Shown here piece after piece: positions 3,350 through 12,898 of a stretch of DNA of 64,000 bases (the stretch's first letter is position 1; each line of letters starts with the position of its first letter). Source of the stretch: an uncultured Pseudomonadota bacterium (GTDB lineage: Bacteria > Pseudomonadota > Alphaproteobacteria > Rs-D84); contig CAMZFU010000002.1 in the NCBI GenBank assembly GCA_947306185.1, positions 2,128 through 66,127 of the forward strand. The letters are read 5' to 3'. Made by a program: the position numbers and the translations under genes. A model generated the notes under the pieces. The model was not told the DNA's origin and ran no database searches. It saw only the letters and a list, made by a program, of their open reading frames with translations.

Positions 3350-3994
3350 TTATTTAACGCGACGCGTTAAAATATCTTTGACAATAACTGCTGTCGCGGT
3401 TCCGATAAACGCACCCATGATAACATCAGATGGCCAATGCGCACCGGCACACACACGCGACACACCGATAACCACCGCCAATATCCAGAAAAACCAGCGA
3501 CCGCGTGGCGCCAACATCCCAATCATCACCAATCCCGCAAACGATGCAAATGTGTGTCCTGATGGCATTGAATGAAATGCCCAATCTTTTGCAAATGGGA
3601 AAAATCCAGTTGTATTTAATGCTTCATAAAAAATCGGGCGCATACGACCAACCAGTATTTTTATTACACCACCAATCACCGTTGCACAGCATACAGAACA
3701 CAAAACCCAAAATGCATAACTATGTCTTACCATATGATACGCTTCTAAAAGATTGACCTTGGTCTTGGTCTGGATAATTTTGCGAATATAAAAAATCACC
3801 ACTATCAAGAACGATATCACAATCCAATTTTTCGTATTGAATATGGCACTAAGAATATCCCATATCTTATAATCAAATTGGCGCAAAAAATTATAAATCG
3901 GGATATCAAATCCAAATATTCCCCATATCACAATTGCACAAGTCAAAACAAATGCAATACTAATTTCCACCAATCTGTTTTTCATACCAATCAT
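3350..3994 (-). CDS. PAP2-family lipid phosphatase
   Basis: All three PAP2 motifs are present: KX6RP (KILVGRMRP), PSGH (MPSGHT) and SRX5HX3D (SRVCAGAHWPSD). The protein is a polytopic membrane protein. Confidence 0.85.
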   Translation of the reverse strand: MIGMKNRLVEISIAFVLTCAIVIWGIFGFDIPIYNFLRQFDYKIWDILSAIFNTKNWIVISFLIVVIFYIRKIIQTKTKVNLLEAYHMVRHSYAFWVLCSVCCATVIGGVIKILVGRMRPIFYEALNTTGFFPFAKDWAFHSMPSGHTFASFAGLVMIGMLAPRGRWFFWILAVVIGVSRVCAGAHWPSDVIMGAFIGTATAVIVKDILTRRVK

Positions 3995-3997
3995 TCC

Positions 3998-5509
3998 TTA
4001 TTCAAAATTTAATAATCTGCTGTATACTTTGGCATCGGTCAATATCTTAACCGCGACCGAAAGTGCGACCATATCTTCATCTTCGCCACTGGTAATTGTT
4101 GGGCACCCACGACGAACCGATTCGGCATCAACGCCATTGTCACGATTATAATCATGCGCACGAAAATCATTATTTATTACATTAAGGAAAAAAGCACTCT
4201 GCTGGGCCGATGTCCGAATATTAGACAAACACACCAATGGGAAAACACCTCGACGATCAATCATGTTGCCCTTGCCTGTTTTGACCGATTTATTCATCAA
4301 TTCTAACACCCCACCGTCATCTAACTGTAATCGTGATGCGATTCGTGCAACACCCGCGGTTGGTGTTCCAATTATCACCCCACGTCCATTTTCATAGAAA
4401 GAATTCGCGATTGCTTCGGCGGTGCCACGTGTCATATTAGAAACAACGACTACAACTGGTGCATTTGTCACTGCGTCACCTGCTGGTATTACCTCTACTT
4501 CATCATGTGCTGTTTCAACAATTCGCATAATCGGGTGTGGCCCAATAAATAGCCCAGCCAATTTTGCCGCTGCGCGTTCATCATCACCATTTGCTGAACG
4601 CAAATCCAACATAACACCGGAAAGATTTTTATGCTTTGATAATGCCTCGGCCACAATAGATGCCGCGTTATTTGAAACACGGTTCACAACAATTTGTAAT
4701 ATTCCGCCATTGGCATCATCCATAAAAATAACATCTGCATCGGCAATAACTATTGTTGCACGACGAACCACAATACGACGTGTACCACTTGGTGTCATTA
4801 ATGTCATTTTTAATGTTCCCGAATTAAACCCAGACATCATCGCCGCCAATGCCGAATCGGCCAAATCAGAAACCAATGTGCCATTTATTTCACCAATCAA
4901 ATCACCCGCCGAAACACCGGCATTATCCGCCGGAGAACCTTTATATACACCCAACACGCGGAAATTTCCGCGTTCATCCCGCATACCTTCGATACCAACA
5001 CTGGTTAGTATTCGACCATCACTTTTGACTTCGGCATCTTGTGAATAAATATAACGGCCGCTTTCATCAATACCGCGCATCAGACCGTCTACAACCGCAC
5101 GGTATATTTCACTTTCCCCCGCCATGGCAAGGTTCGGATCACGTTCACGTAATTTCAGAACCAGCGCCGTTGTAATTTCACCAAACGCGTCCCAATCACG
5201 CGCCGCGGGGCGTGGATAATTCGCAATAATTGAATCGCCCCAAACCAAAACCACACGTTCATCAGTCGCCGCGATGTGCGCATTTTGATGCAAGTTTTCC
5301 AAACTTTCGATTGCGACATTTATGCTTTTACCGCCCCAACTTACACCATCTAATTTTTCATAAATATCGGCGAATCCACGTGACATTTCAACAACATTAA
5401 GACCACCTTGGATTGGTTCGTCTTCAAAAAACAGATTGCCAGCATATGCACCACCTGTTGCAAAAAATCCAAGCAAGATTCCGAAAAAAACTTTTTTAAT
5501 TTTTGTCAT
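3998..5509 (-). CDS. S41 (C-terminal processing) peptidase family protein, catalytic motifs apparently degenerate
   Basis: It has a signal peptide, a PDZ-like segment (GVYKGSPADNAGVSAGDLIGEINGT) and a DLRxN-like motif (LDLRSANG). The usual GSASASE...TFGKG context reads NMTRGTAE...PTAGVA. Confidence 0.75.
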   Translation of the reverse strand: MTKIKKVFFGILLGFFATGGAYAGNLFFEDEPIQGGLNVVEMSRGFADIYEKLDGVSWGGKSINVAIESLENLHQNAHIAATDERVVLVWGDSIIANYPRPAARDWDAFGEITTALVLKLRERDPNLAMAGESEIYRAVVDGLMRGIDESGRYIYSQDAEVKSDGRILTSVGIEGMRDERGNFRVLGVYKGSPADNAGVSAGDLIGEINGTLVSDLADSALAAMMSGFNSGTLKMTLMTPSGTRRIVVRRATIVIADADVIFMDDANGGILQIVVNRVSNNAASIVAEALSKHKNLSGVMLDLRSANGDDERAAAKLAGLFIGPHPIMRIVETAHDEVEVIPAGDAVTNAPVVVVVSNMTRGTAEAIANSFYENGRGVIIGTPTAGVARIASRLQLDDGGVLELMNKSVKTGKGNMIDRRGVFPLVCLSNIRTSAQQSAFFLNVINNDFRAHDYNRDNGVDAESVRRGCPTITSGEDEDMVALSVAVKILTDAKVYSRLLNFE

Positions 5510-8433: not shown

Positions 8434-9468
8434 TTATGCAACGGCGAAATTTAACCGTGGGGATACAAAATTAGATATTGAATTCGATATATTACCGATA
8501 TTACGGCATAGTTTATTAATCAGATTATACGTGCACGCCCATTTAAGCCACCCATGTGCCGATGCCAATTGGCCGACGGCGTGGTCACTGGTGTCACCAT
8601 AGTATGCGATATTCATTAATCGATGACGTATTTTTTTTACCCCCCGCGGCCGCAACAATACAAATTTTATAAAATGCCGGTAACCAATAATATTAACCCC
8701 ATGCGATACCGGATGCAGAAAATATTTTGATAAAATCAGTTTCAATTTATTACCCAAAAAGACATTTATACGTTGCAGATACCCCCACAAAGCATGTTTA
8801 TCATTACCGAACAAACAGAAATCATCACAATAGCGCAGGTAATCATGACAATGCAAAATATGTTTTACGAACATATCCAATTGATGCAAGTACACATTTC
8901 CCATCCATTGACTGGTCAGGTTTCCGATTGGCAAATTTGTATCACCGCCGACGGACCGCACGATATCATTTAACACCCGGATTAATCGACTATCGCCGAT
9001 TTTTTGTTTTAATATATCCATCATAATATCATGATTAATTGACGGAAAGAATTTTTTTATATCGCATTGCAGGTAATATTTATTTCTGCGTACGAATTGC
9101 ATTACGCGTTTTGATGCGGCATGCAATCCACGGCCGGGGATACACGCATAAGAATCACGAATAAACATCCGTTGCCAAATTGGTCCCAACACATTGATAA
9201 TTGCATGATGAACGATATGGTCGGGATAAAGTGGCAATTCATAGATATCCCGTTTTTTGGGTTCGTATATAGTGAACACGCGATAGTTTGATGTTTTGAA
9301 CGTTCCGTCCATCAGTGATTGGCGCAATTTTTTCAGTAAATTTTCGCTATCCGCCAAGAATTTTTTGGTAGATTTTTTATTTTTCTTGCTGCGCACGGCT
9401 TTTTTTGCGGCCAACCTAAAATTTTCTTCGGAAATAAATTCGTCCCACAAATTTTTGTAACGTTTCAT
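8434..9468 (-). CDS. diversity-generating retroelement reverse transcriptase
   Basis: The 344-aa protein has RT motifs QCDIKKFFPSINH and PGRGLHAA. It carries the DGR-diagnostic IGNLTSQ (nt 8908..8928), the YCDD catalytic box (nt 8821..8832) and a C-terminal HGWLKW..TYNL. It lies about 0.6 kb from a TR/VR pair with adenine-only mismatches. Confidence 0.93.
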   Translation of the reverse strand: MKRYKNLWDEFISEENFRLAAKKAVRSKKNKKSTKKFLADSENLLKKLRQSLMDGTFKTSNYRVFTIYEPKKRDIYELPLYPDHIVHHAIINVLGPIWQRMFIRDSYACIPGRGLHAASKRVMQFVRRNKYYLQCDIKKFFPSINHDIMMDILKQKIGDSRLIRVLNDIVRSVGGDTNLPIGNLTSQWMGNVYLHQLDMFVKHILHCHDYLRYCDDFCLFGNDKHALWGYLQRINVFLGNKLKLILSKYFLHPVSHGVNIIGYRHFIKFVLLRPRGVKKIRHRLMNIAYYGDTSDHAVGQLASAHGWLKWACTYNLINKLCRNIGNISNSISNFVSPRLNFAVA

Positions 9469-9469
9469 T

Positions 9470-9796
9470 TTACGAAAAGGAATAATATTTATCTATTTTT
9501 ACGATTGTTGTTTTGAATGGAATATTTCCTTTGACAGATTTTATTTGGTCCAACAAAACGACACTGCCGGTGAACAGGATACAAACTTCGCCATTAAACA
9601 CGAATTGTAATTGCAAACATTCCGCATTATCATGTTTTTTTGATTGTGTGATTCTAAAATCCACGATAAGTATTTCTTGGTTTAGAATATTATCCAATCT
9701 GCGTTTGGTTCCGGGCAACGGCAATTTATCCCGCGCGAACGCGGAAAATTTTGGGCAACCGTCTTGTTGTAACATATTTATTTCGTCCAAGGTCAT
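9470..9796 (-). CDS. DGR-associated small protein, candidate non-Avd accessory factor
   Basis: This 108-aa ORF lies between the TR and the RT. Its stop is 1 nt before the RT ATG (TAA-A-ATG), suggesting translational coupling. It is near-neutral (14 K/R vs 12 D/E by my count) with a beta-strand-like pattern, and I recognise no family. Confidence 0.6.
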   Translation of the reverse strand: MTLDEINMLQQDGCPKFSAFARDKLPLPGTKRRLDNILNQEILIVDFRITQSKKHDNAECLQLQFVFNGEVCILFTGSVVLLDQIKSVKGNIPFKTTIVKIDKYYSFS

Positions 9797-10058
9797 ATTC
9801 CGGCCCTTTGTTTTTACGATTGGATATCCCGGGCGTTCGCCACGATACAGAAACGGCTACTGACCCAGATATCCCCTGCGTTTTGTGTTTGTCCGACGCA
9901 ATCGGAACGATTACGTGCGGCCGGGCTGTGACATCCCACCTTGATGCAAGGCAGTATAGAAACAGGCATAATTGTGTTACCTGAAAAGTGTTTCATACAC
10001 TTTGTCCTGCAGGTTAGCAAAATTCTGTTTGGTATTCAGAATAACCGCACACCAAGAA
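9797..10058 (-). ncRNA. structured spacer region of the DGR RNA (between TR and accessory ORF)
   Basis: Several hairpins are visible on the minus strand: attctg/cagaat, aaagtgt/acacttt, ccttg/caagg and aatcg-ttc-cgatt with an extended imperfect stem. A ~12-bp GGGATATCTGGG / CCCGGGATATCC helix is also present. The position matches the spacer RNA of known DGRs. Confidence 0.45.
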
Positions 10059-10190
10059 GCGACAGCCCCAAAAACGCCCGACCGGAAGTCGGAGTTGTTG
10101 CGGACGTTGTTACCGCAGTTGTTCGCACAGTTGTCCGCACAATCGGACGACGACGAGTTCGAGTTGTTGAACACCCAGCGGGACACAGCA
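10059..10190 (-). repeat. DGR template repeat (TR)
   Basis: The 132-bp repeat aligns without gaps to 10701..10832. The coding-sense strand carries 23 adenines: ten AAC codons, one GAT and two GAC. It lies next to the RT and is not part of a credible secreted-protein gene. Confidence 0.92.
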
Positions 10191-10338
10191 ACACGACCAG
10201 CGATTCCAACCGTATTCGATACCACAGCCCATTCCTGTGCGTGACACACCGTTACACATTTTGGTGCGTCACACGCGGGAATTGTTCCAAATGCAAATGC
10301 ATTTGACCAAGGGTTCGCCTTTGGTGAAATGCACGGGG

Positions 10339-10612
10339 AGTGGGTAGTTGTTGGTGTAAGTTGTTGGTGTAAGTAAAACCACTCCCCACTAATCACTAAT
10401 CACTTCCACTTTTTCCCGTCATCCTGAACTTGTTTCAGGATGACGGCGTTCATTCTGATACCATTGTCATTCCCAGCGAAGCGTGGGAATCCAGTCAATT
10501 TGTGTTCCGTGCCGCTACCCACAACTTTTTATTCACTGGATTGCCACGGTCGTCCTTACGGACTCCCTCGCAATGACAATTTACACTCCCCACTAACACT
10601 AATCACTAACAC
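10339..10612. mobile_element. palindromic MITE-like dispersed repeat, copy A
   Basis: The 198-bp core (10401..10598) matches 11206..11403 with only 3 mismatches, and the flanks are also similar. Internal perfect 13-bp hairpin at 10416..10446 (ccgtcatcctgaa/ttcaggatgacgg). Further pairings are attccca/tgggaat and cattgtcatt/aatgacaat, and the ends are ttagtg/cactaa-rich and inverted. Confidence 0.6.
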
Positions 10613-10667: not shown

Positions 10668-10690
10668 CCTGATGTGCGTTGCACATCAGG
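10668..10690 (-). promoter_or_regulatory. hairpin immediately 3' of VR/target stop codon (candidate DGR target-recognition or terminator element)
   Basis: cctgatgtgc-gtt-gcacatcagg forms a perfect 10-bp stem with a 3-nt loop. It starts 4 nt after the stop codon (10694..10696) and no U-tract follows it. Confidence 0.55.
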
Positions 10691-10693
10691 GCA

Positions 10694-11119
10694 TCAATTT
10701 GCGACAGCCCCAAAAACGCCCGACCGGAAGCCGGAGTTGTAGCGGACGTAGTAACCGCAGCCGTTCGCACAGCTGTCCGCACAAGCGGACGACGACGAGA
10801 ACGAGGCGTAGAACACCCAGCGGGACACAGCAGGATGGGTCATTTTGCACCAACATTTAACACCACCCGTTTCGTATTGTTCGGCATTACTGGCCACCGC
10901 GTACGAACCGCCCGTGTCATTACACACCGCGACACCCGACACATTCCCGTACGGAAACACCGTTGTCCACGTCATATTTGCGGCATTATATGTATATGAC
11001 GTACCTTCGATATACGGGTCCAACACCACCGTGACATAATCAGATGCACTGCACATCACCGATGCAGATGCCGCCCCGGCCATCATCATCACAACAATTG
11101 ATACAATACATTTTTTCAT
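10694..11119 (-). CDS. DGR target: small secreted Cys-rich variable protein
   Basis: The 141-aa protein has a signal peptide (MKKCIVSIVVMMMAGAASASV). Its C-terminal 44 codons are the VR (…AVSRWVFYASFSSSSACADSCANGCGYYVRYNSGFRSGVFGAVAN*). An RBS-like aaaggaaag lies upstream. Confidence 0.9.
   Translation of the reverse strand: MKKCIVSIVVMMMAGAASASVMCSASDYVTVVLDPYIEGTSYTYNAANMTWTTVFPYGNVSGVAVCNDTGGSYAVASNAEQYETGGVKCWCKMTHPAVSRWVFYASFSSSSACADSCANGCGYYVRYNSGFRSGVFGAVAN
10701..10832 (-). repeat. DGR variable repeat (VR)
   Basis: The 132-bp repeat matches the TR at 119 of 132 positions. All 13 mismatches fall at TR adenines (plus-strand T). It ends 4 nt before the target stop codon. Confidence 0.92.
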
Positions 11120-11151: not shown

Positions 11152-11415
11152 AGTGGGTAGTTGTTAGTGTAAGTTGTTAATGAAAGTAAAACCACTAACA
11201 CTAATCACTTCCACTTTTTCCCGTCATCCTGAACTTGTTTCAGAATTCCGGCGTTCATTCTGATACCATTGTCATTCCCAGCGAAGCGTGGGAATCCAGT
11301 CAATTTGTGTTCCGTGCCGCTACCCACAACTTTTTATTCACTGGATTGCCACGGTCGTCCTTACGGACTCCCTCGCAATGACAATTTACACTCCCCACTA
11401 ACAACTAACACCAAC
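11152..11415. mobile_element. palindromic MITE-like dispersed repeat, copy B
   Basis: This is a direct repeat of copy A. The 198-bp core at 11206..11403 differs at 3 positions, all inside the 13-bp hairpin, which is degenerate here. Confidence 0.6.
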
Positions 11416-11573: not shown

Positions 11574-12008
11574 TTACCACACCGATTCCAATACCGCCGT
11601 ACGAAACGTCGTACTACTTTGCACCGCCGTTCCGCACGCCAATGTGCATCCCGATGCACATGACGATGCATCAGAATACGTATCTAAAAACACCCAATAC
11701 GACGACATCGGGGTTTGCATCGCACACCAACAATACGGACCTTCGTCCGCCGCAACGGTATATAATGCCGTGTTAACCGTGTTCGCCGTCCCGGTAATCT
11801 CGTTACAGGCCGCATCGCCCGTTATCGTGTAATTTGCAAATGTCGCCGACCATTTCTTGTCCGTGGCATTTGTTACCGATGCAGATGTGCCGTTGGTGGA
11901 TTTGCTGATTGATGCAATATATGTGTTCTTGTGTTTGCACATTGTCTGCGCGGATGCGCATGTAACCGCACATATTCCAATCAAACTTGTAATCATTATT
12001 CTTTTCAT
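11574..12008 (-). CDS. secreted Cys-rich protein, non-diversified paralog of the DGR target
   Basis: I place the start at the internal ATG 12008 (MKRIMITSLIGICAVTCASAQT signal peptide, RBS agggaa), giving 144 aa. It shares the scaffold MC..W..F....CN....CWC.M.P..S.WVF...C A..C...CG..V.....FR with the target. It has no DNA-level match to the TR. Confidence 0.8.
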   Translation of the reverse strand: MKRIMITSLIGICAVTCASAQTMCKHKNTYIASISKSTNGTSASVTNATDKKWSATFANYTITGDAACNEITGTANTVNTALYTVAADEGPYCWCAMQTPMSSYWVFLDTYSDASSCASGCTLACGTAVQSSTTFRTAVLESVW

Positions 12009-12025
12009 CTTGTTGTTCCCTTGGT

Positions 12026-12898
12026 TTATTTTGTTGTGTGATATATCGTCCCGTCGGGGCTTATAAGATTCACCGCACCAGGTGCATTGCCAGATGCCAA
12101 ATTGATATAGCATACGGCCGTAGGTGCCTGGACCCCCAATGCATGTTCTGTGGTTTTTTGTGCATATACCGGAAATGTATATGACCCAACATGCAATTTG
12201 GTGATTCCCCCACCACATAAGGGCACACATTGTCCGCCCCATGTTAATGATTCGCCTGTATCACAAAATGCCGTGCAAAAATCTTCGCTTTGGCGTTCGT
12301 CGCAATCAATCGCGTCAGATGCCCGAACGTAATTCGTACCGCACGTGCCCCCCGATGTGGGAACAAATGTCGTACCCGCACCCGATACATAATTAATCCA
12401 ACCCGTCGGACATTTCGTATTATCATTTGCCGTACAGGTACCATTATTCATATACTCGTTCGTGCCACACAACGTTGGTGCAGAATTCAATATCCCGCCC
12501 GTCGATATAACATACGACCCCGTCGGTACATTAAATAACGCCGTACCATTCCAACAATGCCCATTATTGTCTATGCCACCAACCGTCGTGGACGCGGTTG
12601 TTACCTCGAAATACCCGCTGTCGCAACGACCACGCGATAACGATGTACATGTGTCATCACTCATATATTCGTTCGTGCCACATAACGTAACTTCGTCTTG
12701 TAACAACATCCCGTTAAAGTATGCATTTAAATGTGACGGTGAATCATAAACCGCATAACCTGATGGGCAATGCCCCGATGTATCAATTGCGACAAATGTT
12801 GTTGTTCCACCCACGGTAACTGTATCCACTGGACACGTAACACCAAATGCCGCATGTCCAAAAAATACAAATAAAAATATAATATTTAATTTTCTCAT
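12026..12898 (-). CDS. secreted Cys-rich repeat protein
   Basis: The 290-aa protein has a signal peptide (MRKLNIIFLFVFFGHAAFG). It contains two ~70-aa internal repeats, each ending in TLCGTNEYM(S/N)xxTCT. The protein is G/T/C-rich and I recognise no family. Confidence 0.8.
   Translation of the reverse strand: MRKLNIIFLFVFFGHAAFGVTCPVDTVTVGGTTTFVAIDTSGHCPSGYAVYDSPSHLNAYFNGMLLQDEVTLCGTNEYMSDDTCTSLSRGRCDSGYFEVTTASTTVGGIDNNGHCWNGTALFNVPTGSYVISTGGILNSAPTLCGTNEYMNNGTCTANDNTKCPTGWINYVSGAGTTFVPTSGGTCGTNYVRASDAIDCDERQSEDFCTAFCDTGESLTWGGQCVPLCGGGITKLHVGSYTFPVYAQKTTEHALGVQAPTAVCYINLASGNAPGAVNLISPDGTIYHTTK

Follow-up and report, generated by a model that had tools for sequence, protein, structure and literature searches.

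A conserved small protein with a predicted OB-like fold, encoded beside the reverse transcriptase of a DGR that has no recognisable Avd

The DGR cassette

The window, by which is meant the whole stretch of DNA that was analysed (64 kb), carries a complete DGR (diversity-generating retroelement) on its minus strand, with a DGR-type reverse transcriptase (RT), a template repeat (TR) and a variable repeat (VR) that differ in an A-specific manner, a VR placed at the 3' end of the target gene, and a hairpin following the VR. The cassette is chromosomal, lying between yajC-secDF and mutL with no prophage around it. Its features, in order of position, are these:

8434..9468, minus strand: DGR-type RT, 344 aa (RVT_1 at 2.7e-10; phrog_1423 at 3.6e-97)
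9470..9796, minus strand: accessory ORF, 108 aa, with an ATG start; predicted OB-like beta-barrel
9797..10049, minus strand: conserved non-coding spacer of 253 nt from the TR to the accessory ORF, with a hairpin and a long-range helix
about 10050..10190, minus strand: TR, rich in AAC, inside a 139-aa ORF at 9977..10396
10668..10690, minus strand: hairpin just downstream of the VR, with a 10-bp stem (CCTGATGTGC/GCACATCAGG) and a 3-nt loop
about 10692..10832, minus strand: VR, at the 3' end of the target gene and 88% identical to the TR
10694..11119, minus strand: target gene, encoding a 141-aa secreted Cys-rich protein with the VR at its C-terminus

The RT contains the sequences IGNLTSQ and YCDD, which we take to be motifs typical of DGR RTs, and in the core of the TR/VR alignment every mismatch falls at a TR adenine. 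The hairpin at 10668-10690 is putatively the usual DGR target-site element, by analogy with the one described by Guo et al., 2011 (PMC3240598) and with the trinucleotide-loop hairpins of archaeal DGRs (PMC4372165).

Several other features of this region are worth recording. The 139-aa ORF that bears the TR lacks a signal peptide, and its C-terminal half is a paralogue of the variable C-terminus of the target; it looks like the remnant of a duplicated target gene that now serves as template. Immediately upstream of this ORF and of the target gene lie the two copies of a 217-nt direct repeat (10394-10610 and 11199-11415), 96-97% identical and rich in short hairpins, with no further copy within the window; a promoter or 5' region may therefore be common to the two. 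Upstream of the target are two more genes for secreted Cys-rich proteins (11574-12242 and 12026-12898, both on the minus strand). The C-terminus of the first of these resembles the VR region at the protein level; it was considered as a current DGR target and set aside, its DNA being too diverged from the TR.

The accessory gene

The accessory ORF, on the minus strand, is flanked by the TR and the RT, as the preliminary description of this DNA had it, and the claim that its stop comes 1 nt ahead of the RT start agrees with the coordinates: the TAA occupies 9472-9470 and the RT ATG 9468-9466, leaving the single base 9469 between them. All 42 homologous loci tested keep the sense frame open, against two at most for the antisense frames. 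The ORF has 96 homologues, with identities of 52-97% and nearly all of exactly 108 aa, and the hosts of the close ones are gut and rumen Alphaproteobacteria (Candidatus Enterousia and relatives). It is a real gene under strong constraint.

The accessory gene is overlapped by a longer antisense ORF of 116 aa (9513..9863, plus strand), which naive gene calling by ORF length would choose instead. This antisense ORF is not kept in relatives and is considered spurious because the sense frame is the conserved one, with its 96 homologues, and the antisense frames are almost never open.

The spacer between the TR and the accessory gene

The non-coding spacer is conserved among relatives (alignment A6). 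It includes a hairpin at 9980-10013 and a long-range helix in which 9864-9876 pairs with 9822-9833, and compensatory double changes are seen in 12 of the 15 predicted long-range pairs across 25 sequences; no Rfam family matches the segment. The spacer is probably a structured 3' part of the DGR RNA. By analogy it may be the counterpart of the "Sp" RNA element of BPP-1, a region that bRT-Avd reportedly needs for priming; this same analogy makes the spacer RNA the natural candidate for a ligand of the accessory protein, though there are no binding data.

Relationship to the recognised accessory proteins

The accessory proteins recognised in DGRs are Avd, HRDC, MSL and CH1, along with four tenuous PAG genes (Wu et al. 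2018, PMC5758913). According to the same authors, Avd proteins are very poorly conserved; MSL proteins, of 112-283 aa and pI 7.2 +/- 1.7, contain a MutS domain I and always occur together with avd; and CH1 proteins, of 160-169 aa and with an acidic pI of 4.7 +/- 0.2, belong to Bacteroides lineage 3a. The pI of Avd proteins is 9.5 +/- 0.7.

The residue count given earlier for the accessory ORF (10 K and 4 R versus 8 D and 4 E) was reproduced exactly; with one H in addition, the protein has a pI of 8.47 and a net charge of +1.6 at pH 7, for which the earlier term "near-neutral" is fair, "weakly basic" being an equally good one. The strong basicity of Avd is thereby not matched, the pI of the family as a whole being 8.1 +/- 1.4 (range 5.0-10.1, in 135 distant representatives; 8.2 +/- 0.9 in 87 close homologues) as against the value for Avd given above. 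By size and charge alone the protein also fails to fit CH1, since the ORF encodes only 108 aa with the pI just given and its family is of about 95-110 aa.

Neither the ORF nor any of 110 diverse relatives is matched by the Pfam models for Avd (PF22296, PF05635), HRDC (PF00570) or MutS_I; BPP-1 Avd, used as a positive control, matches PF22296 at 7.3e-36. Comparison of the family profile (alignment A2) by hhalign gives a probability of 0.2% with BPP-1 Avd and of 0.3% with residues 1-133 of E. coli MutS, which comprise domain I. The BPP-1 genome yields no match to the family profile, nor does the window, translated in six frames, yield one to BPP-1 Avd. Nor does Pfam detect Avd, HRDC or MutS_I among 106 small flanking ORFs from 30 diverse loci. 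For the 25 small ORFs of the window none of the three appears among the first 25 of 38 matched families, and the families among these listed matches are housekeeping ones (YajC, SecB, RuvA/C, GreA, Def and others). The absence of Avd is thus judged by Pfam models and one Avd sequence, and Avd, being poorly conserved, is hard to detect.

The predicted fold

AlphaFold2 arrived at the same model when run with 38 close homologues (pLDDT 88.8) and with 110 diverse ones (pLDDT 90.4, about 95 in the core). In both models DSSP assigns β1 to residues 41-51, β2 to 59-67, β3 to 70-76, a helix to 79-87, β4 to 94-101 and β5 to 104-107, with short helices in the N-terminal segment that precedes the barrel. 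OB folds have the topology β1-β2-β3-helix-β4-β5, with the helix between β3 and β4 and a long first strand. From these models the accessory protein is predicted to be an OB-like five-stranded beta-barrel without a close solved relative. Three stretches that had earlier been guessed to be beta strands do correspond to β1, to β2/β3 and to β4/β5, except that residues 79-87, within the second of them, are helical.

A Foldseek search of the PDB gave no significant match (best E = 0.05, with TM values of about 0.45-0.5 across some 70 residues), and the OB assignment for that reason rests on topology and on weak neighbours. These include domain II of RuvBL2 (TMq 0.48, rmsd 3.3 over 68 columns) and the HIN domain of p202 (rmsd 3.4 over 79 columns), the other OB neighbours being the IFI16 HIN domain, human SSB1, RPA, and the Stn1 and RecG OB domains. 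Among the predicted viral structures of BFVD there are seven matches at E <= 1e-3, the top two of which are reverse-transcriptase proteins (A0A8S5RXI3, 324 aa, E = 9e-7; A0A8S5MQF5, 602 aa), and phage entries named "ssDNA binding protein" match at E = 3.3e-3. A conserved basic loop between β1 and β2 (SKK) and a conserved aromatic pair, YY, in β5 are inferred to lie at the sites where OB folds usually bind nucleic acids; there are no binding data.

With five strands and one main helix, the models do not have the four-helix-bundle fold of Avd, and no Avd structure is among their Foldseek matches; MutS chains are absent from the top 50 in either PDB search. HRDC, which is all-helical, is set aside on the beta-rich models as well as on its unmatched Pfam model, and MSL on the lack of any MutS domain I similarity by Pfam, hhalign or fold and of a recognisable avd gene in the cassette. 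The preliminary description had maintained that the protein does not look like Avd, allowing that profile or structure comparison might yet uncover a divergent helical bundle. None emerged, both models being beta-barrels, and the claim stands on the missing profile match, the predicted fold, the hhalign result and the OB domains found as Foldseek neighbours. Judged by sequence and by predicted fold, the accessory protein is unrelated to Avd, MSL and HRDC.

It is scarcely credible, then, that the accessory protein belongs with the four-helix bundles of Avd as a highly divergent member, or with the MutS domain I-like proteins of the MSL class. It does occupy the Avd position, and in length (108 aa) and near-neutral charge it comes close to the lower end of the MSL range, but the hhalign probabilities are negligible, none of the 110 members matches the Avd or MutS_I models, a beta-barrel is predicted at a pLDDT of 90, and MSL is always accompanied by avd, which is not recognised here.

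The protein family

An exhaustive profile search against 1.84 billion representative proteins finds 811 family clusters (50% identity) at E <= 1e-3, 319 of them at E <= 1e-10, and almost all of 90-110 aa. In the loci examined, the hosts belong to many bacterial phyla and include one archaeon; viruses are represented too, among them ANMV-1, the archaeal virus from which DGRs of archaea first became known. Positions conserved across the family are F17, G29, K31, S52, Q64, F75-T76-(G77)-S78, P93-F94 and the YY at 104-105, and the helical N-terminal segment bears a conserved motif of its own, FSDFA...LxGxK. In one member, P0119 (233 aa), the domain is present twice in tandem, following an N-terminal tail that is acidic.

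No Pfam family matches the ORF at E <= 1 or any of the 110 diverse relatives, scanned singly, at E <= 0.01, and NCBIfam offers nothing credible, PedC/BrcD appearing at chance level (E = 0.03, 14 bits versus a cut-off of 120). The best PDB sequence matches of two family profiles, Max and GITR ligand, were discarded as noise at E of about 0.5. There is no functional annotation for the family in Pfam, NCBIfam or PHROGs, and every homologue is named "hypothetical protein" in its source record.

Association with DGR reverse transcriptases

Co-occurrence was surveyed in 164 loci, made up of 82 from genomes and metagenomes, 80 from IMG/VR (of 239 matching) and two annotated phage records. A DGR-type RT lies alongside the accessory gene in 159 of them, and the alternative raised at the outset, that the ORF would prove absent or unconserved next to related RTs, is not borne out. 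For the genome and metagenome loci the RT is within the locus in 79 of 82; for the IMG/VR viral loci it is adjacent in 78 of 80, with the RT preceding the accessory gene in 77; and in both phage records (ANMV-1 and Caudoviricetes vir525) the accessory gene comes directly after the RT.

Three gene orders are found. The order TR-accessory-RT is that of the window and of gut Alphaproteobacteria, and TR-RT-accessory is that of viruses, the accessory gene also following the RT in distant relatives from Omnitrophota, Desulfobacterota, Dehalococcoidales, Melioribacteraceae and Saccharibacteria. The third, VR-accessory-TR-RT, occurs in a Desulfobacterium locus (L078) and in a Methanospirillum MAG (L079), and is the layout of BPP-1 with the accessory gene in the avd slot. 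Where the accessory gene precedes the RT in close relatives, the junction is 24 nt or less in 58 of 66 cases, with a 4-nt overlap in 15, which argues for an operon with likely translational coupling. The domain is also found fused to the RT, RVT_1 coming first and the domain following at the C-terminus, in P0111 (507 aa), P0190 (414 aa) and P0189 (324 aa).

About 45 related genome loci, in addition to the window, have A-specific TR/VR pairs and are therefore bona fide DGRs. Across 149 loci the pairwise distances of the accessory protein and of the RT are correlated (r = 0.73, Mantel p = 0.001), and their mean divergence is similar, 0.50 for the accessory protein and 0.52 for the RT; a protein that diverges no faster than its RT is far better conserved than Avd, which is poorly conserved according to Wu et al.

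Two kinds of additional ORF were seen in these loci. In four from Alphaproteobacteria (L006, L009, L010 and L027) an ORF for a secreted Cys-rich protein of about 95 aa (e.g., L009:6333-6617) stands between the accessory gene and the RT, opening gaps of 440-530 nt. Three distant loci have a conserved ORF of about 100-120 aa, beginning MKGFPK..., after the accessory gene (L068:6303-6611, L076:2579-2890, L082:1856-2224). Small ORFs in this position were considered as a second accessory and rejected, as only these three are related to each other and they look like phage genes; they have no Pfam match and are probably not components of the DGR.

In five loci (L007, L062, L077, L162, L164) the accessory gene has no RT within reach, and these look like decayed or split cassettes. 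That of L077 adjoins secF, matching the synteny of the window, while in L162 and L164 (IMG/VR, 3646-5285) an Mtd-like target (Pfam mtd_2nd, 4e-18) directly precedes the accessory gene and there is no RT within 5 kb, which reflects either a split cassette or loss of the RT.

Adjacency and fusion show a functional linkage, but do not indicate which step of retrohoming is served. The accessory gene could in principle be a passenger, such as a phage or addiction gene, carried along by DGRs with no part in retrohoming. Its function is, after all, inferred, and a few loci keep it without an RT; against this, it has stayed beside the RT on chromosomes, in prophages and in archaeal viruses, under three different gene orders, it occurs as an in-frame fusion with RTs, and its product is as well conserved as the RT itself. 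We regard a passenger gene as very improbable.

Proposed role of the accessory protein

The reading that we prefer, with a probability of roughly two in three, is that the accessory protein is a dedicated partner of the DGR RT, probably nucleic-acid-binding, which fills the cofactor role of Avd in DGRs that lack it; its function is inferred, there being no experimental datum. It is read as an RT partner because of its position, its coupling to the RT in an operon, its fusion in some proteins to the RT C-terminus and the lack of a recognisable Avd, and presumed to be a cofactor since it takes the cassette positions of Avd and the two exclude each other in the loci examined. Single-stranded nucleic-acid binding is the most plausible activity because of the OB-like fold, the conserved basic β1-β2 loop (xSKK) and the conserved YY in β5, again as an inference. 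What remains inferred is that the protein binds the RT, that it binds nucleic acid, and that mutagenic retrohoming or cDNA synthesis depends on it; the natural fusions support association with the RT only indirectly.

In the mechanism proposed, the accessory gene and the RT gene would share a transcript, probably with translational coupling between them, and the accessory protein would most likely be held in a stoichiometric complex with the RT, near the C-terminal (thumb) end of the latter. There it would probably contact the single-stranded TR-spacer RNA in priming, the nascent cDNA, or both, and so take, without Avd, the cofactor role that the Avd pentamer has in Bordetella phage BPP-1. The wide range of pI in the family, in which some members are acidic, counts against this to some degree, as it would be unusual for a non-specific nucleic-acid binder.

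A more specific version is possible, though we hold it only tentatively: that there is a DGR class with a mechanism of its own, to which the OB-like protein belongs as an obligate subunit and in which a monomeric, RT-bound OB domain replaces the Avd pentamer, recognises the structured spacer RNA and positions the spacer for self-priming. If that were true, the family would explain a substantial share of the "Avd-less" DGRs of viruses, archaea and gut bacteria, ANMV-1 included.

The main rival to an RT partner is an SSB-like protein working at a stage after reverse transcription, which would coat or protect the single-stranded cDNA and deliver it to the VR, with no role in priming or cDNA synthesis. 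The OB topology, the weak structural resemblance to SSB1, to RPA and to phage proteins that bind ssDNA, and the existence of a homing step for which DGRs have no known dedicated protein (the mechanism of retrohoming is unknown; bioRxiv 10.64898/2026.07.21.739853) all accord with it. Fusion to the RT C-terminus, a 1:1 gene dosage and translational coupling, however, suit a subunit of the RT better than a cDNA coat required in excess, and the DGRs with this accessory family offer no other candidate for the role of Avd. An SSB-like role cannot be excluded, but we think it unlikely, an RT subunit giving the better fit.

Novelty and significance

About a quarter of catalogued DGRs are without a recognisable Avd, and an Avd-independent mechanism has been proposed for them (Wu et al. 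2018, PMC5758913). No published beta-rich or OB-like DGR accessory was found in the searchable literature; the sequences of PAG1-4 lay outside the comparison. The present protein might nonetheless belong to a class already catalogued, either as one of PAG1-4, which have been recorded as each common to 3-4 DGRs (Wu et al. 2018, PMC5758913), or among the archaeal "Avd" ORFs, and would then be merely unnamed rather than new. An "Avd" arrow was drawn in the ANMV-1 cassette by Paul et al., 2015, Handa et al., 2016 wrote of proteins "with similar physical properties" to Avd, and in archaeal DGR papers "Avd" was assigned by pI and molecular weight only. The ANMV-1 protein AJP62065.1 (L083, KP703175.1, 4992-5288), encoded directly after the RT, is a member of the present family and, with 98 aa, a pI of 9.13 and a mass of 11.4 kDa, fits that criterion; members of the family may therefore have been named Avd by analogy, though unrelated to it in sequence and in predicted fold. 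Yet an OB-like or beta-rich accessory goes unnamed in the searchable literature, and the databases and source records have, as noted, neither an annotation nor a name for it. That the class has been catalogued before seems to us unlikely, slightly more so than the SSB-like role.

What the cassette presents, then, is a DGR with a different, unannotated accessory protein family, with a modest chance of an earlier listing without characterisation, as the PAG lists were not compared. The size of this non-Avd family and its adjacency or fusion to RTs suggest that a class of helper protein has probably been overlooked. It is a concrete, strongly conserved and widespread candidate, apparently unnamed, for the missing cofactor of Avd-less DGRs, and through it the question of Avd independence becomes directly testable. 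Annotation tools for DGRs, which have models only for Avd, HRDC, MSL and CH1, would improve with a model for this family. For directed evolution, now built on BPP-1 bRT plus Avd, it offers a compact mutagenic RT of two proteins or of a single fusion.

Comparison with known systems

With the OB-fold binders (SSB, RPA, HIN domains and RuvBL domain II) the accessory protein has in common the barrel order of its predicted fold; it differs in its extra helical N-terminal segment and in lacking a significant solved match, and its binding, unlike theirs, is inferred.

Of the other DGR accessories, CH1 and HRDC, like the present family, either replace Avd or come in addition to it, and they are confined to particular lineages of RT. 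MSL proteins, including Msl of Bacteroides DGRs, are likewise small and near-neutral, and form a C-terminal extension of some RTs, as members of the present family do; MSL, however, is found only together with avd, while the accessory family occurs without it.

Avd of Bordetella phage BPP-1 is a close parallel, being a small protein (about 100-130 aa) encoded in the DGR core beside the TR and RT. The slots that avd takes in its cassettes, before the TR, between TR and RT, or after the RT, are also used by the accessory family, and in the loci examined the two are mutually exclusive, so far as Avd can be detected by Pfam and BPP-1 Avd. The accessory protein differs from Avd in its predicted fold, an OB-like barrel in place of a pentamerising four-helix bundle; it is also only weakly basic, much better conserved, and sometimes fused to the C-terminus of the RT.
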